DNA of 64,000 bases from Escherichia coli O157:H7 (GTDB lineage: Bacteria; Pseudomonadota; Gammaproteobacteria; Enterobacterales; Enterobacteriaceae): assembly GCF_013167455.1 (NCBI RefSeq), contig NZ_CP038328.1. The stretch is one strand, 5' to 3'. Positions 13,761 to 62,095 of the stretch are shown one piece after another. Every line of letters begins with the position of its first letter. Positions within the stretch are counted from its first letter, which is position 1. Both the position numbers and the translations under genes were made by a program. A model generated the notes under the pieces. That model saw only the letters and a list, made by a program, of their open reading frames with translations, had not been told where the DNA came from and did no database searches.

Positions 13761-13877
13761 TCTCTCTTTATCCCCATCTTTATCGCAATGCTTGCGCCTT
13801 TTTCCTGTGGCGTGAATAATTTCCTTATAGGCCGGTGAATGTTCAGCTTCCGGCGGCATACAGATAAGAGGAACGGT

Positions 13878-14918
13878 TTGAACATAGACACTCGCGAAAT
13901 CACCCTGGAGCCAGCAGACAACGCGCGTCTGTTGAGCCTGTGCGGCCCGTTTGATGACAACATCAAGCAGCTCGAACGCCGTCTCGGCATCGAGATCAAT
14001 CGCCGCGATAACCACTTTAAACTGACCGGCCGTCCGATTTGCGTCACCGCTGCGGCAGACATTCTGCGTAGCCTGTATGTCGATACTGCCCCGATGCGCG
14101 GTCAGATTCAGGATATCGAACCGGAACAGATCCACCTTGCGATTAAAGAAGCACGGGTACTGGAGCAAAGCGCGGAGAGCGTGCCGGAGTACGGCAAAGC
14201 GGTCAATATCAAAACCAAACGCGGCGTAATTAAGCCGCGCACGCCAAACCAGGCGCAGTACATCGCCAATATTCTCGACCATGACATTACCTTCGGCGTT
14301 GGCCCGGCGGGTACGGGTAAAACCTACCTGGCAGTGGCTGCGGCAGTTGATGCCCTGGAGCGTCAGGAAATTCGCCGTATTCTGCTGACTCGTCCGGCAG
14401 TAGAAGCCGGTGAGAAACTGGGCTTCCTGCCTGGCGATTTAAGCCAGAAAGTAGACCCGTATCTGCGCCCGCTGTACGACGCGCTGTTTGAAATGCTGGG
14501 TTTTGAGAAAGTCGAGAAACTGATTGAGCGCAACGTTATTGAAGTCGCACCGCTGGCCTATATGCGTGGTCGTACGCTGAACGACGCATTTATCATTCTC
14601 GATGAGAGCCAGAACACTACCATCGAACAGATGAAGATGTTCCTGACCCGTATCGGTTTTAACTCAAAAGCGGTTATCACCGGCGACGTCACACAGATCG
14701 ACCTGCCGCGTAATACTAAATCAGGCTTACGTCATGCCATCGAAGTGCTGGCCGATGTCGAAGAGATCAGCTTTAACTTCTTCCACAGCGAAGACGTGGT
14801 TCGTCACCCGGTGGTGGCGCGTATCGTTAACGCCTATGAAGCCTGGGAAGAAGCCGAACAAAAACGTAAAGCGGCGCTGGCGGCAGAACGCAAGCGCGAA
14901 GAACAGGAACAAAAATGA
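13878..14918 (+). CDS. ybeZ: PhoH-like ATPase
   Basis: Walker [10 protein letters not shown] recall the protein starting [12 protein letters not shown], which here requires a TTG start at 13878 (346 aa); the ORF-track ATG at 13839 is the alternative. Confidence 0.85.
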
Positions 14919-17913: not shown

Positions 17914-18011
17914 TCCCTTCTTATCGTGCCGGAATACATCCCATATTTCGGCACGCTCACCGGATGCGGCATCAGTGCATTATCCGGATAACAATATTCT
18001 CCTATCCAACT

Positions 18012-18028
18012 TTGGCACATCTATTGCT
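18012..18028 (+). promoter_or_regulatory. candidate sigma54 (-24/-12) promoter upstream of gltI
   Basis: tTGGCACatctaTTGCt matches TGGCAC-N5-TTGC with the GG and GC elements 10 nt apart; about 280 bp upstream of gltI. Confidence 0.5.
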
Positions 18029-18309
18029 TTGTTATACAAGGCAAAGCTTTAACCAGCATCAGTACAACCCGGTTGCACCACAGCAATCCACCGGTAGCAC
18101 CAAAAGAGTGCATTTTAAGAATTTTGCTTCGGAATGGTGCGGCGCACCTCCCAAATATAAACAATAAAACAGCAATATCTTTACATTTAGCCAAACTAAA
18201 TGTTACCTAACAGGCACAACACTACACAATAAAGTTGCAGATGATAACAACACAAACACTCACAACGGGTATCCATGCGTTCTTAACGCAGAAGATAAAG
18301 GAGTTGGAT

Positions 18310-19218
18310 ATGCAATTACGTAAACCTGCCACAGCAATCCTGGCCCTGGCGCTTTCCGCAGGACTGGCACAGGCAGATGACGCCGCCCCGGCAGCGGGCA
18401 GTACGCTGGACAAAATCGCCAAAAACGGCGTGATTGTCGTCGGTCACCGTGAATCTTCAGTACCTTTCTCTTATTACGACAATCAGCAAAAAGTGGTGGG
18501 TTATTCGCAGGATTACTCCAACGCCATTGTTGAAGCAGTGAAAAAGAAACTCAACAAACCGGACTTGCAGGTGAAACTGATTCCGATTACCTCACAAAAC
18601 CGTATTCCGCTGCTGCAAAACGGCACTTTTGATTTTGAATGTGGTTCTACCACCAACAACGTCGAACGCCAAAAACAGGCGGCTTTCTCTGACACTATTT
18701 TCGTGGTCGGTACGCGCCTGTTGACCAAAAAGGGCGGCGATATCAAAGATTTTGCCGACCTGAAAGGCAAAGCCGTAGTCGTCACTTCCGGCACTACCTC
18801 TGAAGTTTTGCTCAACAAACTGAATGAAGAGCAAAAAATGAATATGCGCATCATCAGCGCCAAAGATCACGGTGACTCTTTCCGTACCCTGGAAAGCGGT
18901 CGTGCCGTTGCCTTTATGATGGATGATGCTCTGCTGGCCGGTGAACGTGCGAAAGCGAAGAAACCAGACAACTGGGATATCGTCGGCAAGCCGCAGTCTC
19001 AGGAAGCCTATGGTTGCATGTTGCGTAAAGACGATCCGCAGTTCAAAAAGCTGATGGATGACACTATCGCTCAGGTGCAGACCTCCGGTGAAGCGGAAAA
19101 ATGGTTTGATAAATGGTTCAAAAATCCCATTCCGCCGAAAAACCTGAACATGAATTTCGAACTGTCAGACGAAATGAAAGCACTGTTCAAAGAACCGAAT
19201 GACAAAGCACTGAACTAA
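18310..19218 (+). CDS. gltI: glutamate/aspartate ABC transporter periplasmic binding protein
   Basis: Starts MQLRKPATAILALALSAGLAQA (signal peptide); 302 aa. The ORF-track start at 18235 is an upstream in-frame ATG. Confidence 0.9.
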   Translation: MQLRKPATAILALALSAGLAQADDAAPAAGSTLDKIAKNGVIVVGHRESSVPFSYYDNQQKVVGYSQDYSNAIVEAVKKKLNKPDLQVKLIPITSQNRIPLLQNGTFDFECGSTTNNVERQKQAAFSDTIFVVGTRLLTKKGGDIKDFADLKGKAVVVTSGTTSEVLLNKLNEEQKMNMRIISAKDHGDSFRTLESGRAVAFMMDDALLAGERAKAKKPDNWDIVGKPQSQEAYGCMLRKDDPQFKKLMDDTIAQVQTSGEAEKWFDKWFKNPIPPKNLNMNFELSDEMKALFKEPNDKALN

Positions 19219-19374
19219 TTACAAGAACCAGGGGCGGAAATTCTAGCCCTCTCGATTGTTACGTAGCACGGACAGACTATACGCCTGATGGTCGTTCCCC
19301 ATCGGGCCTGAAAACCGCAATACGCTGGGTAACAATCTTCGAGGGTAGCAGTTAACGCTGCTACCCTCTTTTTT
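19215..19374 (+). ncRNA. sroC: SroC sRNA (GcvB sponge) in the gltI-gltJ intergenic region
   Basis: Position and size match the known gltI 3'UTR-derived sRNA; ends at terminator hairpin gagggtagcag ttaacg ctgctaccctc plus T6 (19341-19374). Confidence 0.55.
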
Positions 19375-19387
19375 CTGGAGTAGATTT

Positions 19388-31275: not shown

Positions 31276-33858
31276 ATGCAAGAGCAATACCGCCCGGAAG
31301 AGATAGAATCCAAAGTACAGCTTCATTGGGATGAGAAGCGCACATTTGAAGTAACCGAAGACGAGAGCAAAGAGAAGTATTACTGCCTGTCTATGCTTCC
31401 CTATCCTTCTGGTCGACTACACATGGGCCACGTACGTAACTACACCATCGGTGACGTGATCGCCCGTTACCAGCGCATGCTGGGCAAAAACGTTCTGCAG
31501 CCGATCGGCTGGGACGCGTTTGGTCTGCCTGCGGAAGGCGCGGCGGTGAAAAACAACACCGCTCCGGCACCGTGGACGTACGACAACATCGCGTATATGA
31601 AAAACCAGCTCAAAATGCTGGGCTTTGGTTATGACTGGAGCCGCGAGCTGGCAACCTGTACGCCGGAATACTACCGTTGGGAACAGAAATTCTTCACCGA
31701 GCTGTATAAAAAAGGCCTGGTATATAAGAAGACTTCTGCGGTCAACTGGTGCCCGAACGACCAGACCGTACTGGCGAACGAACAAGTTATCGACGGCTGC
31801 TGCTGGCGCTGCGATACCAAAGTTGAACGTAAAGAGATCCCGCAGTGGTTTATCAAAATCACTGCTTACGCTGACGAGCTGCTCAACGATTTGGATAAAC
31901 TGGATCACTGGCCAGACACCGTTAAAACCATGCAGCGTAACTGGATCGGTCGTTCCGAAGGCGTGGAAATCACCTTCAACGTTAACGACTATGACAACAC
32001 GCTGACCGTTTACACTACCCGCCCGGACACCTTTATGGGTTGTACCTACCTGGCGGTAGCTGCGGGTCATCCGCTGGCGCAGAAAGCGGCGGAAAATAAT
32101 CCTGAACTGGCGGCCTTTATTGACGAATGCCGTAACACCAAAGTTGCTGAAGCTGAAATGGCGACGATGGAGAAAAAAGGCGTCAATACTGGCTTTAAAG
32201 CTGTTCACCCATTAACGGGCGAAGAAATTCCCGTTTGGGCAGCAAACTTCGTATTGATGGAGTACGGCACGGGCGCAGTAATGGCGGTTCCGGGGCACGA
32301 CCAACGCGACTACGAGTTTGCCTCTAAATACGGCCTGAACATCAAACCGGTTATCCTGGCGGCTGACGGCTCTGAGCCAGATCTTTCTCAGCAAGCCCTG
32401 ACTGAAAAAGGCGTGCTGTTCAACTCTGGCGAGTTCAACGGTCTTGACCATGAAGCGGCCTTCAACGCCATCGCCGATAAACTGACTGCGATGGGCGTTG
32501 GCGAGCGTAAAGTGAACTACCGCCTGCGTGACTGGGGTGTTTCTCGTCAGCGTTACTGGGGCGCGCCGATTCCGATGGTGACGCTGGAAGACGGTACCGT
32601 AATGCCGACCCCGGACGACCAGCTGCCGGTGATCCTGCCGGAAGATGTGGTGATGGACGGCATTACCAGCCCGATTAAAGCAGATCCACAGTGGGCGAAA
32701 ACTACCGTTAACGGTATGCCAGCGCTGCGTGAAACCGACACTTTCGACACCTTTATGGAGTCCTCCTGGTACTATGCGCGCTACACTTGCCCAGAGTACA
32801 AAGAAGGTATGCTGGATTCCGAAGCGGCTAACTACTGGCTGCCGGTGGATATCTACATTGGTGGTATCGAACACGCCATTATGCACCTGCTCTACTTCCG
32901 CTTCTTCCACAAACTGATGCGTGATGCAGGCATGGTGAACTCTGACGAACCAGCGAAACAGTTGCTGTGTCAGGGTATGGTGCTGGCAGATGCCTTCTAC
33001 TATGTTGGCGAAAACGGCGAACGTAACTGGGTTTCCCCGGTTGATGCTATCGTTGAACGTGACGAGAAAGGCCGTATCGTGAAAGCGAAAGATGCGGCAG
33101 GCCATGAACTGGTTTATACCGGCATGAGCAAAATGTCCAAGTCGAAGAACAACGGTATCGACCCGCAGGTGATGGTTGAACGTTACGGCGCGGACACCGT
33201 TCGTCTGTTTATGATGTTTGCTTCTCCGGCTGATATGACTCTCGAATGGCAGGAATCCGGCGTGGAAGGGGCTAACCGCTTCCTGAAACGTGTCTGGAAA
33301 CTGGTGTACGAGCATACTGCGAAAGGTGATGTTGCGGCACTGAACGTTGATGCACTGACTGAAGATCAGAAAGCGCTGCGTCGCGATGTGCATAAAACTA
33401 TCGCTAAAGTGACCGATGATATCGGCCGTCGTCAGACCTTCAACACCGCAATTGCGGCGATTATGGAGCTGATGAACAAACTGGCGAAAGCACCGACCGA
33501 TGGCGAGCAGGATCGCGCTCTGATGCAGGAAGCACTGCTGGCCGTTGTCCGTATGCTTAACCCGTTCACCCCGCACATCTGCTTCACGCTGTGGCAGGAA
33601 CTGAAAGGCGAAGGCGATATCGACAACGCGCCGTGGCCGGTTGCTGACGAAAAAGCGATGGTGGAAGACTCCACGCTGGTCGTGGTGCAGGTTAACGGTA
33701 AAGTCCGTGCTAAAATCACCGTTCCGGTGGACGCAACGGAAGAACAGGTTCGCGAACGTGCTGGCCAGGAACATCTGGTAGCAAAATATCTTGATGGCGT
33801 TACTGTACGTAAAGTGATTTACGTACCAGGTAAACTCCTCAATCTGGTCGTTGGCTAA
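31276..33858 (+). CDS. leuS: leucyl-tRNA synthetase
   Basis: Starts [22 protein letters not shown] and KMSKS motifs; 860 aa. The ORF-track start at 31252 is an upstream ATG. Confidence 0.95.
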
Positions 33859-33872
33859 GCGCGGGAGGAAGC

Positions 33873-34454
33873 GTGCGATATCTGGCAACATTGTTGTTAT
33901 CTCTGGCGGTGTTAATCACCGCCGGGTGTGGCTGGCATCTGCGTGACACCACGCAGGTTCCTTCCACTATGAAGGTCATGATCCTGGACTCAGGCGATCC
34001 GAACGGGCCATTAAGCCGTGCGGTGCGTAACCAGTTACGTCTGAATGGTGTCGAGTTGCTTGATAAAGAAACCACGCGTAAGGACGTTCCATCCCTGCGT
34101 TTGGGTGCTGTATCAATCTCACAGGATACCGCGTCGGTTTTCCGTAATGGTCAAACTGCGGAATATCAGATGGTGATGACTGTTAGCGCGTCGGTATTGA
34201 TTCCTGGACGAGATATCTACCCGATTAGCACCAAAGTCTTCCGTTCATTCTTCGATAACCCGCAAATGGCGTTAGCGAAAGATAACGAGCAGGAAATGAT
34301 CATTAAAGAGATGTACGACCGTGCTGCCGAACAGCTGATTCGTAAGCTGCCAAGCATCCGTGCTGCGGATATTCGTTCCGACGAAGAACAGACGTCGACT
34401 ACAACGGATACTCCGGCAACGCCTGCACGCGTCTCCACCACGCTGGGTAACTGA
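33873..34454 (+). CDS. lptE: LPS assembly lipoprotein LptE
   Basis: 193-aa ORF with GTG start and lipobox (LITAGC). Confidence 0.95.
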
Positions 34455-37004: not shown

Positions 37005-37340
<336 letters not shown>

Positions 37341-37343
37341 TGC

Positions 37344-37811
37344 GTGAAGCTGCAACTTGTCGCCGTGGGAACGAAAATGCCGGACTGGGTACAAACCGGT
37401 TTTACCGAGTACCTGCGTCGTTTTCCGAAAGATATGCCCTTCGAGCTGATTGAAATTCCGGCCGGAAAACGCGGCAAGAATGCGGACATCAAGCGCATAC
37501 TCGACAAAGAGGGTGAGCAGATGTTGGCGGCCGCAGGCAAAAACCGCATTGTCACCCTCGATATTCCAGGCAAGCCCTGGGATACGCCGCAGTTAGCCGC
37601 TGAGCTGGAACGCTGGAAGCTGGATGGTCGCGACGTCAGTCTACTGATTGGCGGGCCTGAAGGGTTGTCGCCTGCCTGTAAAGCGGCGGCGGAGCAGAGC
37701 TGGTCGCTGTCGGCGCTTACCCTCCCCCATCCGCTGGTTCGCGTGCTGGTCGCAGAGAGTCTGTACCGGGCGTGGAGCATCACCACCAACCATCCTTATC
37801 ACCGTGAGTGA
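37344..37811 (+). CDS. rlmH: 23S rRNA m3-pseudouridine1915 methyltransferase
   Basis: 155-aa ORF with GTG start; SPOUT family. Confidence 0.95.
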
Positions 37812-39745: not shown

Positions 39746-40858
39746 ATGACGGATAATCCGAATAAAAAAACATTCTGGGATAAAGTCCATCTCGATCCCA
39801 CAATGCTGCTGATTTTACTGGCATTGCTGGTTTACAGCGCCCTGGTTATCTGGAGCGCCAGCGGTCAGGATATTGGCATGATGGAGCGTAAAATCGGCCA
39901 AATCGCGATGGGTCTGGTCATCATGGTGGTGATGGCGCAAATTCCTCCACGCGTTTATGAAGGCTGGGCCCCCTATCTCTATATCATCTGTATTATTTTG
40001 CTGGTGGCGGTAGATGCTTTCGGTGCCATCTCTAAAGGCGCTCAACGCTGGCTGGACCTCGGTATTGTTCGTTTTCAGCCGTCGGAAATTGCCAAAATAG
40101 CCGTACCACTGATGGTTGCGCGCTTTATCAACCGCGACGTTTGCCCGCCATCGTTGAAGAACACTGGCATCGCGCTGGTGCTGATATTTATGCCCACGCT
40201 GCTGGTGGCTGCACAGCCTGACCTGGGAACATCAATCCTCGTTGCGCTTTCCGGTCTGTTTGTACTGTTCCTCTCTGGCCTTAGCTGGCGTCTGATTGGC
40301 GTCGCAGTAGTGCTGGTAGCGGCGTTCATTCCGATTCTGTGGTTCTTCCTGATGCATGATTACCAGCGCCAGCGCGTAATGATGCTCCTGGACCCGGAAT
40401 CAGACCCACTCGGCGCGGGCTATCACATTATTCAGTCTAAAATTGCTATTGGCTCCGGCGGATTACGCGGCAAAGGCTGGCTGCACGGCACTCAGTCACA
40501 GCTTGAATTTCTCCCCGAACGCCATACTGACTTTATCTTCGCGGTACTGGCGGAAGAGCTGGGATTAGTGGGCATTTTGATTCTGCTCGCTCTCTACATT
40601 CTGCTGATCATGCGCGGGCTGTGGATAGCCGCCAGAGCGCAAACCACCTTTGGTCGCGTCATGGCTGGCGGCTTAATGCTGATATTATTCGTTTATGTCT
40701 TCGTAAATATTGGTATGGTAAGCGGTATTCTGCCGGTTGTAGGGGTTCCGCTCCCACTGGTCAGTTATGGAGGATCGGCGCTAATTGTGCTGATGGCTGG
40801 GTTCGGGATTGTAATGTCAATCCACACCCACAGGAAAATGTTGTCGAAAAGCGTGTAA
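39746..40858 (+). CDS. mrdB: SEDS-family peptidoglycan glycosyltransferase RodA
   Basis: 370-aa multi-TM ORF; recognised. Confidence 0.95.
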
Positions 40859-43681: not shown

Positions 43682-43781
43682 CTCGCTTCTCCGTTACCCG
43701 GCCCCTGGTCGGGTAACTCCCCTCTCCTCGCTGTGATATACTTTTCTCCCACTTTTACTCATTCTCCACGGAGATGCCGTT

Positions 43782-44423
43782 TTGTATCAGGATAAAATTC
43801 TTGTCCGCCAGCTCGGTCTTCAGCCTTACGAGCCAATCTCCCAGGCTATGCATGAATTCACCGATACCCGCGATGATAGTACCCTTGATGAAATCTGGCT
43901 GGTCGAGCACTATCCGGTATTCACCCAAGGGCAGGCAGGAAAGGCGGAGCACATTTTAATGCCCGGTGATATTCCGGTGATTCAGAGCGATCGCGGTGGG
44001 CAGGTGACTTATCACGGGCCGGGGCAACAGGTGATGTATGTATTGCTTAACCTGAAACGCCGTAAACTCGGTGTGCGTGAACTGGTGACCTTGCTTGAGC
44101 AAACAGTGGTGAATACCCTGGCTGAACTGGGTATAGAAGCGCATCCTCGGGCTGACGCGCCAGGTGTCTATGTTGGGGAAAAGAAAATTTGCTCACTGGG
44201 TTTACGTATTCGACGCGGTTGTTCATTCCACGGTCTGGCATTAAACGTCAATATGGATCTTTCACCATTTTTACGTATTAATCCTTGTGGGTATGCCGGA
44301 ATGGAAATGGCTAAAATATCACAATGGAAACCCGAAGCGACGACTAATAATATTGCACCACGTTTACTGGAAAATATTTTAGCGCTACTAAACAATCCTG
44401 ACTTCGAATATATTACCGCTTAA
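43782..44423 (+). CDS. lipB: octanoyltransferase (lipoate-protein ligase B)
   Basis: 213-aa ORF with TTG start; recognised. Confidence 0.9.
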
Positions 44424-44682
44424 TTTCATACCTCAATGGCCCAATTTACACTGGGTCATTACTCATAACACCTGCTAATGCTTTACATCTCCTTCGCGTT
44501 TGTATATTTTCTTTATCACTTGCAGAAATGCGATGCTACGCCTTGCTCCGTAACTCACCCCATTGATTAACTTATTGAAATAGTTGATTATGATGAGCAA
44601 AAGCGTTCCGTTCCAATTAGACATAAGATTATTGTAATTTTTTTAAATATTATTTTTCCATGAATAAAATTGGAGTAAGTGC

Positions 44683-45636
44683 GTGGATAGTAATAATCAA
44701 ATTGAATCCTGTTTAAGCAGAAAATCGTCAGAAGGTAAACCACAAATATTTACAACCTTACGAAATATTGATCTTAATCTTCTGACTATTTTTGAAGCTG
44801 TATATGTACATAAAGGGATCGTTAATGCAGCGAAAGTGCTTAATCTGACCCCCTCGGCAATCAGTCAGTCTATTCAGAAACTGCGCGTTATATTCCCTGA
44901 CCCATTGTTTATTCGCAAAGGCCAGGGTGTCACTCCTACCGCATTTGCGATGCATCTACATGAGTATATCAGTCAGGGCCTTGAGTCCATTCTTGGCGCG
45001 CTGGATATCGAAGGAAGCTATGATAAGCAACGAACGATAACTATTGCGACCACCCCCTCGGTCGGAGCTCTGGTCCTTCCTGTCATTTATCGGGCGATTA
45101 AAACTCACTATCCGCAGCTTTTACTGCGCAACCCGCCCATCAGCGACGCGGAAAACCAACTCAGTCAGTTTCAAACCGATCTCATCATAGATAACATGTT
45201 TTGCACCAATCGTACGGTGCAACATCATGTTCTGTTCACCGACAATATGGTGTTAATTTGCCGCGAGGGAAATCCACTACTCTCTTTAGAAGATGACAGA
45301 GAGACTATCGACAACGCTGCACATGTACTCCTGTTACCGGAAGGACAAAATTTCAGCGGTCTGCGGCAGAGAATTCAAGAGATGTTTCCGGACCGGCAGA
45401 TCAGCTTCACCAGCTACAACATTTTGACAATCGCTGCACTGGTTGCCAACAGTGACATGTTAGCGATTATTCCCAGCCGTTTTTATAACCTGTTTAGCCG
45501 TTGCTGGCCGCTGGAAAAACTGCCTTTTCCGTCCTTAAATGAGGAGCAAATAGATTTCTCTATCCACTACAACAAATTCAGCCTGCGTGATCCCATCCTG
45601 CACGGAGTAATAGATGTTATCCGTAATGCATTTTGA
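44683..45636 (+). CDS. ybeF: LysR-family transcriptional regulator
   Basis: 317-aa ORF with GTG start and N-terminal HTH (LNLTPSAISQSIQKLR). Confidence 0.85.
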   Translation: MDSNNQIESCLSRKSSEGKPQIFTTLRNIDLNLLTIFEAVYVHKGIVNAAKVLNLTPSAISQSIQKLRVIFPDPLFIRKGQGVTPTAFAMHLHEYISQGLESILGALDIEGSYDKQRTITIATTPSVGALVLPVIYRAIKTHYPQLLLRNPPISDAENQLSQFQTDLIIDNMFCTNRTVQHHVLFTDNMVLICREGNPLLSLEDDRETIDNAAHVLLLPEGQNFSGLRQRIQEMFPDRQISFTSYNILTIAALVANSDMLAIIPSRFYNLFSRCWPLEKLPFPSLNEEQIDFSIHYNKFSLRDPILHGVIDVIRNAF

Positions 45637-47242: not shown

Positions 47243-48037
47243 TCATAATAATTGCGGCGGCGCAAAGCGACGGTTGTTTAAGACGGGCAGTTGCGCGCGC
47301 ACCTGACGCACACGTTCGGGCGTCACTTCCGCCATAATGAGTGCAGGCATTTCTGACGCTGCCGCAATGGTGACGCCAAAGGGATCTATAATCCGGCTTT
47401 GCCCGATATTTTTGTTCCCGCACTCCCCCGCCGCCACCATATAACAGGTGGTATCCAGCGCACGAGCGGCAAGCAACGTTGACCAGTGGTGCTCTTTGAG
47501 CGGCCCGCGAACCCAGGCGGCAGGAAGTACCAGGATTTCAGCTCCCTGTAATGCCTGTGCCAGCGCCAGCTCTGGAAAGCGTAAGTCATAACAGGTCATC
47601 AGACCGACCTTCATCCCCTCCACCTCGAGTAACGGAGCAATTTCATTACCAGCATCAACACGGCGTGATTCCTGAATGGCAAATGCATCATAGAGATGCA
47701 ATTTGGCATAACGGGCGACGATGTTTCCTGCCTGTAGCGCCACCAGCATATTCCATGCGCGCCCCGGCGTTGAAGGAACATGAATCGTCAGAATTGTCGT
47801 CATCATGTTACGTTTACTTTCTCGCCGTAAACGTCCGAGGAATTCGCCTTCCAGCAGCTGTGCTGATTTAACCGATAGATCTGCATCATGATCATCGCGC
47901 GCCAGCAATGCTTCCGGCAGGACAAACAGCGATACGTCGTTTTCCGCCGCCTGCGCCATCAACGAGGCACAAATCTCAGCGTTCTTTTCCCACACAGATG
48001 TAACAGCAAACTGTCCTGCAGCAACCAGCATTGCCAC
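47243..48037 (-). CDS. ybeM: carbon-nitrogen hydrolase (nitrilase superfamily), intact
   Basis: 264-aa uninterrupted ORF; as I recall, ybeM is a frameshifted pseudogene in K-12 MG1655. Confidence 0.85.
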
Positions 48038-48123
48038 CTCCTGTCAGAGTCGTAAAATTCGCCAACGACGATTATTCGGCGTTACACTTATCACTCATAC
48101 AAATCAAATAGCAGGATTTTGCA

Positions 48124-48507
48124 GTGTTACAACTTCTTTTAGCAGTTTTTATTGGCGGTGGTACGGGAAGCGTGGCGAGATGGCTGTTAAGTATGCGATT
48201 TAACCCGCTGCATCAGGCGATTCCGTTGGGGACGCTGGCAGCAAACCTGATTGGGGCATTCATCATAGGAATGGGATTCGCCTGGTTCAGCAGGATGACG
48301 AACATTGATCCAGTGTGGAAAGTATTAATCACCACCGGATTTTGTGGCGGTCTAACAACCTTCTCAACATTTTCGGCAGAAGTGGTGTTTTTGTTACAAG
48401 AGGGCCGCTTTGGCTGGGCATTACTGAACGTTTTCGTCAACCTTCTGGGGTCTTTTGCCATGACCGCACTGGCATTCTGGCTGTTTTCGGCCTCAACCGC
48501 ACACTAA
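48124..48507 (+). CDS. crcB: fluoride ion channel CrcB/FluC
   Basis: 127-aa ORF with GTG start; small 4-TM protein. Confidence 0.9.
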
Positions 48508-48512
48508 AGACC

Positions 48513-48545
48513 AAAAAAAACCCGCTGATTAAGCGGGTTTTGAAT
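48513..48545. terminator. bidirectional terminator between crcB and cspE
   Basis: aaaaacccgct gatta agcgggtttt. Confidence 0.7.
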
Positions 48546-48560
48546 TCTTGCTGACGTATC

Positions 48561-48770
48561 TTACAGAGCGATTACGTTTGCAGCAGAAGGGCCTTTGGCA
48601 CCGTTAGTGATTTCGAACTCTACGCGCTGACCTTCAGCAAGAGTTTTAAAACCATTAGTCTGGATTGCAGAGAAGTGTACGAACACGTCTTTGCTGCCGT
48701 CTTCCGGAGTAATGAAACCGAATCCTTTGGACTCATTAAACCACTTAACGTTACCTTTAATCTTAGACAT
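48561..48770 (-). CDS. cspE: cold-shock-domain protein CspE
   Basis: Starts [20 protein letters not shown]; 69 aa. The ORF-track start at 48854 is an upstream in-frame ATG in the leader. Confidence 0.95.
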
Positions 48771-48944
48771 CAAAATTACCTTTACATGAAAAATAGACAC
48801 AAATGCTGTGTCGGTTACCAGTACACCAATTGTGGTACGCTTTGTCCAGTGCAACTTTACTAAAAAGTGATAAAAATCGCGTTATTTTTGATGTTGCTTA
48901 TTTTAGTTATTGATTTTAAAGAAGTTACTAAAACTTCATTTGTC

Positions 48945-49505
48945 TCAAAACTGAAAGCGCATCCAGGCAAAGTACACATTGCCATTGTTGTAGGTACCCG
49001 GAATGTAGGTCATCTGAAAAGTAACTGGGCCATAACCCACGGAGGCCAATGGCAGTAGAACCGGGAGAGGGATGTAATTCCAGTTATCGCGTGCCGTTAC
49101 GCCAGCGGTGAATCCCAGACCTAAATGAAAATTTTCATCCGCCAGCGGTCGCCAGGTACTTTCCCATCCGTATCCGGCAATCGGTTCCCATTTGTTCCAC
49201 GAGTCCTTAAATGCCATGGCATACAGGCCATGCCAGTTTCCTTTTTCATCCCAACGCGACAGGCCAAAACCGCCACCCCACGGTCGCTCGTTATAGCGAT
49301 CGGTTTTTTCTTTGTCGTAAGCGAAACGTGCATGCCAGGTGATGGCAGGAATATATAAATCATAATGTTCAGGCTGTTGCCAGGTTTGTACAATATTTTC
49401 TCTAAACGTTGTCATCCACTCATCTGCGTTAGCAAAAACTTTACCAACGCTGATTAACTGAATAAAAACAAAGGAAAAGATAGCGACATATTTACTCACG
49501 TTCAT
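48945..49505 (-). CDS. pagP: lipid A palmitoyltransferase PagP (outer membrane)
   Basis: Starts [25 protein letters not shown]; 186 aa. Confidence 0.9.
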
Positions 49506-61866: not shown

Positions 61867-62012
61867 TCCTCTGATTTACAAAACACGCTAATTCGTCTTT
61901 CATAAACCATGACGATTAAGAATTATACATAATGCGCTGCATTGAGGAATTCCCTGAATGTGACGCAAATCACTTCAAAGAGTGAGCAACAGTCAGTATC
62001 ATCATGTGAGTT

Positions 62013-62047
62013 AAACCCTCGCCGCCTGACGGTGAGGGTTTTCTTTT
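62013..62047 (+). terminator. hairpin plus T-run in the rna-rnk intergenic region
   Basis: aaccctcgcc gcctgac ggtgagggtt followed by ttctttt. Confidence 0.45.
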
Positions 62048-62095
62048 GGGTATGTTTATCTGCGACACTCGCAGTACCGACGACATGGAGTAAAA

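Follow-up and report, generated by a model that had tools for sequence, protein, structure and literature searches.

Does translation of a gene that is annotated with a TTG or GTG start really begin at this codon, and if so, what does the weak codon mean for the gene? The question is raised seven times in a stretch of 64,000 nucleotides of the Escherichia coli O157:H7 chromosome (contig NZ_CP038328.1 of assembly GCF_013167455.1), which we refer to as the window. A sequence-only reading had placed TTG starts at ybeZ, lipB and rsfS and GTG starts at lptE, rlmH, ybeF and crcB. All seven codons are read at the positions that it named, and they agree both with RefSeq, as annotated for an identical genome, and with K-12. 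We regard it as nearly certain that each of the seven codons is the true start of its gene, and that they represent seven ordinary near-cognate initiation sites. The starts are as follows.

13878..13880 (+), TTG start of ybeZ (PhoH-like); coding sequence 13878-14918, 346 aa.
33873..33875 (+), GTG start of lptE; coding sequence 33873-34454, 193-aa lipoprotein precursor; first ATG/GTG/TTG past an in-frame stop.
37023..37025 (+), TTG start of rsfS; coding sequence 37023-37340, 105 aa; a stop lies 21 nt upstream, with no other candidate in between.
37344..37346 (+), GTG start of rlmH; coding sequence 37344-37811, 155 aa; 4 nt past the rsfS stop, with an in-frame stop 6 nt upstream.
43782..43784 (+), TTG start of lipB; coding sequence 43782-44423, 213 aa.
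44683..44685 (+), GTG start of ybeF; coding sequence 44683-45636, 317-aa LysR-type regulator; sole ATG/GTG/TTG between a stop at -18 and codon 52.
48124..48126 (+), GTG start of crcB (flc, fluoride channel); coding sequence 48124-48507, 127 aa; in-frame stop 15 nt upstream.

The region has the gene order miaB-ybeZ-ybeY-corC-lnt ... leuS-lptE-holA-nadD-cobC-rsfS-rlmH-mrdAB-rlpA-dacA-ybeD-lipB-ybeF-lipA ... crcB, and its orientation in the window is opposite to that in K-12. Window positions 11001-50000 are base for base the same as 891033-930032 of NZ_CP022050.2, and each flank is one base off that record. A 3-kb piece around the ybeZ start found a match in 5424 of 5426 complete E. coli genomes, with 100% identity to several O157 strains. 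The genes of K-12 MG1655 (NC_000913.3 / U00096.3) have the same lengths and start codons as those of the window (ybeZ b0660, lipB b0630, rsfS b0637, rlmH b0636, lptE b0641, ybeF b0629, crcB b0624). The start contexts from -60 to +30 are identical between the two strains in five genes, and differ by a few bases in ybeF and lipB. The version numbers of the K-12 protein records (.2 for ybeZ and lipB,.4 for rsfS and ybeF) point to an earlier revision of these starts, which in the case of ybeZ is documented.

The two strains also differ in other parts of the window. Here djlC and ybeQ are annotated as pseudogenes with internal stops, whereas K-12 has intact copies; conversely, the gene for the ybeM/nit amidase is intact in the window and a pseudogene in K-12. 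An IS5 element that lies between gltI and lnt in K-12 is absent from the window.

24394-25845 (-), 29511-30488 (+), 47243-48031 (-) and intergenic 17914-18309, strain differences from K-12, in window positions.

The RefSeq annotation lists 59 coding sequences in the window, of which 52 start with ATG, four with GTG and three with TTG. The non-ATG genes are ybeZ, rsfS, lipB, lptE, rlmH, ybeF and crcB and no others, and the sequence-only reading had thus neither missed a gene of this kind nor added one. Measured against an E. coli baseline of 83/14/3 % for ATG/GTG/TTG (bioRxiv 10.1101/063800), TTG starts among the 59 coding sequences were not in significant excess (3 versus 1.8 expected, P = 0.26). 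GTG starts were somewhat few (4 versus 8.3 expected, P = 0.07 for so low a number), and non-ATG starts together numbered 7 versus 10 expected. Seven non-ATG starts among 59 genes is an ordinary frequency for E. coli and not unusual.

All seven codons are in frame with a conserved protein and lie at its N-terminal edge, and each opens the expected reading frame, for example LYQDKILVR in lipB, LQGKALQDF in rsfS and VDSNNQIES in ybeF. In six of the seven cases, the codon is the first ATG, GTG or TTG past an in-frame stop, which is found 6 to 48 nt upstream; ybeZ alone has an upstream alternative. Each codon is also preceded by a purine-rich Shine-Dalgarno motif that ends 4-8 nt upstream of it and is conserved across species.

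13866..13873 (+), ybeZ Shine-Dalgarno AAGAGGAA; 4 nt before the TTG; anti-Shine-Dalgarno duplex -6.0 kcal/mol, top 5% of random window positions.
33863..33871 (+), lptE Shine-Dalgarno GGGAGGAAG; directly past the leuS stop (33856-33858); -10.3 kcal/mol.
37012..37018 (+), rsfS Shine-Dalgarno AGGGGGA; -9.4 kcal/mol, top 0.4% of random positions; CAGGGGGAA kept across species.
37332..37336 (+), rlmH Shine-Dalgarno TGGAG; within the rsfS 3' end; -5.9 kcal/mol; CTGGAG/CTGGGG conserved.
43770..43774 (+), lipB Shine-Dalgarno GGAGA; -6.6 kcal/mol, top 2% of random positions; CGGAGA kept across species.
44671..44675 (+), ybeF Shine-Dalgarno TGGAG; -5.9 kcal/mol; GGAG kept in most species.
48112..48116 (+), crcB Shine-Dalgarno CAGGA; -4.1 kcal/mol, top 15% of random positions, the weakest of the seven; AGCAGGA kept in most species.

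The duplex energies of the seven starts thus range from -4.1 to -10.3 kcal/mol, compared with a mean of -1.9 kcal/mol at random positions, and six of the seven starts rank within about the best 5% of positions drawn at random from the window. The energy at lptE was matched by no random position in the window, and its motif is near-invariant in 70 species. On average, the seven non-ATG genes have a stronger Shine-Dalgarno interaction than the 52 ATG genes (-6.9 versus -5.5 kcal/mol), with only marginal significance (one-sided P = 0.06).

The Shine-Dalgarno sequence upstream of the start positions the 30S subunit, and the initiator fMet-tRNA decodes UUG or GUG despite the mismatch in the first position. 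Proteins made from UUG or GUG therefore begin with formyl-methionine and not with leucine or valine. The lipB product exemplifies this: in the accessible part of a published supplement (PMC13245402), lipB is listed with TTG as the database start, with the peptide MYQDKILVR covering residues 1-9 and with support from Ribo-RET in BL21. Initiation at UUG and GUG has been reported to reach roughly 10-100% of the AUG rate (bioRxiv 10.1101/063800). Start-codon selection and its compensation by the Shine-Dalgarno sequence have been described as well (PMC5622118), and the pattern in the window fits this description. Two of the starts lie immediately behind another gene, rlmH 4 nt past the rsfS stop and lptE 14 nt past the leuS stop; judging from this spacing, translation of rlmH and lptE is likely to be coupled to the upstream gene by re-initiation.

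None of the seven starts coincided with a riboswitch or leader in an Rfam scan of the window, and no fluoride riboswitch was found upstream of crcB. The matches obtained elsewhere in the window were a cspA-type thermoregulator element over cspE and its leader (48513-48955, -), the sRNA sroC at the 3' end of gltI (19214-19376, +), the rnk leader (61942-62050, +) and tRNAs.

For six of the genes, the starts were compared across species in 80 species-representative loci from Enterobacteriaceae and Erwiniaceae, which were collected by a scan with MrdA and included flanks of 10 kb; an indel of one codon was allowed. Every species compared had an ATG, GTG or TTG either exactly at the aligned position or no more than one codon away from it (lptE 70/70, rsfS 76/76, rlmH 78/78, lipB 73/73, ybeF 43/43, crcB 62/62). 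The identity of the codon was also largely fixed. It was GTG in 70/70 species for lptE, TTG in 76/76 for rsfS and GTG in 78/78 for rlmH, and the exchanges found in the other genes were between start codons: TTG 68, GTG 4 and ATG 1 in lipB (n = 73), GTG 38 and ATG 5 in ybeF (n = 43), and GTG 57, ATG 4 and TTG 1 in crcB (n = 62). That some species have ATG in place of GTG or TTG at precisely the aligned position argues strongly for this position being the start.

The pattern of conservation around the codons leads to the same place. Upstream of the starts of rsfS, lipB and crcB, about 40-45% of positions are conserved and there is no periodicity, and past the start conservation is 85-99% at codon positions 1 and 2 with a dip at position 3. 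The change is particularly sharp in rsfS, where conservation rises from about 0.4 to 0.97-0.99 at the TTG itself.

The neighbouring genes serve as a reference for the stability of the codons. The ATG starts of leuS, holA, mrdA, rlpA, dacA, ybeD and lipA are equally stable, all being ATG, and start-codon identity is therefore under purifying selection in general at this depth. Stability of start-codon identity is a general property and not peculiar to the seven genes. Among further genes of the region, the ATG control mrdB (equivalent to window position 39746) has GTG in 12 of 80 species, and cobC has GTG in 4 of 48. In nadD, 17 loci lacked any start codon up to two codons to either side of the aligned position, which suggests that the start is shifted there or that there is an indel.

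Throughout Enterobacteriaceae and Erwiniaceae, the codons have been retained during the turnover of synonymous sites, which suggests that the weak codon may not be a defect that is merely tolerated but part of a selected expression set-point, usually combined with a good Shine-Dalgarno sequence. The rigid retention of weak codons over roughly 80 species would fit gene-specific selection for sub-maximal initiation. It could instead be argued that the non-ATG codons are neutral accidents, with ATG, GTG and TTG interchangeable and the choice among them drifting. In favour of this view, the frequency of non-ATG starts in the window is ordinary, some switching does occur in lipB, crcB and ybeF, and selection on start codons has been described as no more than weak and as mostly in favour of AUG (PMC5622118). 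We nevertheless consider neutrality unlikely. Drift among three equivalent codons should yield ATG often. Moreover, the start codons of lptE, rsfS and rlmH never vary in their first base over 70-78 species, and in lipB and crcB this base is conserved to about 90%, whereas the third base was invariant in just 1 of 143 fully conserved four-fold degenerate codons of these five genes in the same species. Pure neutrality of codon choice is disfavoured by this contrast.

Published experiments were inspected for direct evidence of initiation. The sequence-only reading had proposed N-terminal proteomics or initiation profiling as a check, and in the accessible parts of the published data such evidence supports six of the seven starts, with rsfS as the exception. 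Initiating ribosomes have been mapped on the ybeZ codon by TetRP, on the lipB codon by Ribo-RET in BL21 and on the codons of lptE, rlmH, ybeF and crcB by INRI-seq (PMC4909307, PMC13245402, PMC9825163). In the part of the INRI-seq table that was available (PMC9825163 Table S2), cell-free peaks are given at the GTG start in 5/5 replicates for each of the four genes, with values of 16-36 for lptE, 35-46 for rlmH, 62-98 for ybeF and about 22-38 for crcB/flc. The same part of the table has no peak at any of the TTG starts (rsfS, lipB, ybeZ). About 40% of the ATG genes in its legible portion likewise have none (PMC9825163), and because so many ATG genes are without peaks, the silence at the TTG starts is uninformative and not contrary to them. 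Small as the numbers are, the difference between the four GTG and the three TTG starts suggests that UUG initiation is poorly captured in the cell-free system of INRI-seq.

Other sources contributed less. The Ribo-RET data of Meydan for K-12, as tabulated in the available part of PMC9825163, have no peak at any of the seven codons, and the main text of the Meydan preprint did not mention ybeZ, lipB or rsfS, the three names searched. The accessible TRAINSPOTTER supplements, searched by gene name and b-number, contained lipB alone of the seven genes. A paper on a lipB TTG start was set aside, as its subject is lipBA of Shewanella and not the E. coli gene.

In the accessible parts of the published supplements searched, N-terminal peptides were found for lipB and ybeZ only, and for none of rsfS, ybeF, crcB, rlmH and lptE. 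For these five genes, it may be asked whether the true start is an ATG or GTG further downstream, with the annotated codon merely reflecting a longest-ORF convention. Besides the lack of a peptide, the missing INRI-seq peak of rsfS and the unusual extension of 30 residues ahead of the HTH domain of YbeF could be taken to point in this direction. However, the downstream candidates would remove parts of conserved domains: the next candidates cut into the Pfam domains of RlmH, CrcB, RsfS and YbeF, which begin at residues 1, 6, 10 and 31, respectively. In RlmH, the SPOUT_MTase profile aligns from residue 1. In RsfS, the next candidate is an ATG at codon 37, and in YbeF, where the HTH_1 domain spans residues 31-89, it is codon 52. 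LptE needs the N-terminal arginine and the hydrophobic stretch of its lipoprotein signal peptide; translated from the GTG, the protein has a standard signal peptide of this kind, ending in LITAG|C. The comparative data also speak against later starts, since protein-level conservation with its dip in the third position sets in at the annotated codon, and since the aligned position is always a start codon, which in ybeF and crcB has become ATG in some species. In addition, four of the five genes have their INRI-seq peaks at the annotated GTG in the available part of the table (PMC9825163). Downstream starts for the genes without peptide data are therefore disfavoured, and we consider them very improbable.

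Solved structures contain the same polypeptides, with identical 155 residues in the RlmH chain 1ns5 and identical 105 residues in RsfS chains such as 7bl2, although the lengths of these chains reflect the choice of the depositors and not the place of native initiation. Among the seven, rsfS is the one with the least direct support. Its UUG start was noted in a study in which a translational lacZ fusion was expressed, with its maximum in exponential phase (PMC10917681), and no direct initiation mapping was found for it in the available portions of the TetRP supplements, the TRAINSPOTTER supplements or the INRI-seq table. Its assignment is a probable one that draws on comparative and domain evidence.

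The remaining gene, ybeZ, is the only one in which a longer reading frame is available. The program-made list of open reading frames starts ybeZ at an upstream in-frame ATG, as the sequence-only reading had pointed out, and this start extends the protein by 13 residues.

13839..13841 (+), in-frame ATG upstream of the ybeZ start and not itself the start; opens the longest ORF (359 aa) and was used for ybeZ in the 2006 K-12 annotation.

The profiling of tetracycline-inhibited ribosomes by Nakahigashi et al. (2016) bears directly on this choice. In their data, 79.0/79.3/45.2 reads were assigned to the TTG of ybeZ and 0/0/0 to the old ATG (PMC4909307 Table S2 row 7). The ybeZ start was shifted in this study from the 2006 ATG to the TTG 39 nt further downstream, in line with the 2014 annotation, and the new start has the support of an N-terminal peptide (PMC4909307). 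Use of the upstream ATG, which the sequence-only reading had named as the result that would speak against its assignment, was thus not observed. The other six genes are absent from the tables of this study (PMC4909307), because only starts that differ from the 2006 record are listed there.

Since ybeZ is too distant to be included in the 80 mrdA-centred loci, eight orthologous loci were obtained separately by protein look-ups (Salmonella, Klebsiella, Pectobacterium, Pantoea, Serratia, Sodalis, Edwardsiella and Izhakiella). With E. coli included, TTG was found at the aligned position in 9/9 genera, and the motif AGAGGAA/AAAGGA in front of it was likewise kept in 9/9. Conservation and codon periodicity set in at the TTG across the nine genera. 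The ATG at -39 of E. coli corresponds to a GTG in Salmonella, the Klebsiella locus has no in-frame start upstream of the TTG, and in Serratia, Sodalis, Izhakiella and Pantoea an in-frame stop is located 12-21 nt upstream of the TTG.

A conserved K-R-N ahead of the leucine of YbeZ was considered as a sign of a real N-terminal extension and rejected, as the frame is interrupted by stops in several genera. The apparent conservation of K-R-N-x-L in over-long YbeZ calls arises because the Shine-Dalgarno sequence AAGAGGAAC is read in frame. Such over-long calls are common in protein collections, where entry P0003, with 359 aa, represents 4504 member sequences and a Salmonella form has 361 aa.

Translation of ybeZ from the upstream ATG as a 359-aa protein, alone or together with the TTG form as one of two N-terminal isoforms, could appeal to the longest, ATG-started frame, to the former annotation, to the many database entries and to the seemingly conserved K-R-N, but we consider it exceedingly improbable and practically excluded, given that TetRP placed no reads on this ATG and that it is poorly conserved, the peptide moreover matching the TTG form only (PMC4909307), the Shine-Dalgarno sequence of the ATG being weak (-4.1 kcal/mol), and the K-R-N being no more than AAGAGGAA in translation. 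The TTG at 13878 is thus retained as the start of ybeZ.

Public collections also contain proteins of 504-514 aa described as YbeZ-YbeY fusions, which combine PhoH and YbeY Pfam domains (P0002, P0025, P0034, P0037, P0041, P0047, P0048); P0002 has 56 members and 100% identity to the query. These fusions are probably mis-calls or frameshifts at the 4-nt overlap of ybeZ and ybeY (window 14915-14918).

The starts matter in practice for gene prediction. The sequence-only reading had warned that callers restricted to ATG would produce wrong N-termini, and besides the extension of ybeZ, this holds for the other six genes, which would be truncated by 32 aa (lptE), 36 aa (rsfS), 11 aa (rlmH), 22 aa (lipB), 89 aa (ybeF) and 23 aa (crcB). 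Choosing the longest ORF is no remedy. In the window, 17 of the 59 annotated coding sequences have a further upstream in-frame ATG, GTG or TTG that is not the annotated start, and the longest-ORF rule therefore over-extends many genes, for example the following.

18235 versus 18310, longest ORF versus annotated start of gltI.
21612 versus 21645, longest ORF versus annotated start of rihA.
31252 versus 31276, longest ORF versus annotated start of leuS.
49529 versus 49505, longest ORF versus annotated start of pagP.

Neither rule, ATG-only or longest-ORF, gives the correct N-termini. The seven starts themselves are already known: K-12 and RefSeq currently annotate them in this way, and experiments in the literature have confirmed most of them. 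Nothing new was learned about the biology of the seven genes.

Weak start codons with a regulatory role are known from infC, whose AUU start is autoregulated through IF3. Three of the seven genes, ybeZ, rsfS and rlmH, are ribosome-associated, as is infC, and by analogy the TTG of ybeZ, the TTG of rsfS and the GTG of rlmH might be kept as sensors of initiation fidelity, responding to the IF3 level or the state of the ribosome in a feedback loop like that of infC. We consider this proposal improbable. UUG and GUG are canonical alternatives and far stronger than the AUU of infC, and the likeness to infC is a lead only. What the seven genes do have in common with infC and its AUU, and with the non-canonical start codons of the lac operon (PMC11445065), is that a codon weaker than AUG is stably kept.
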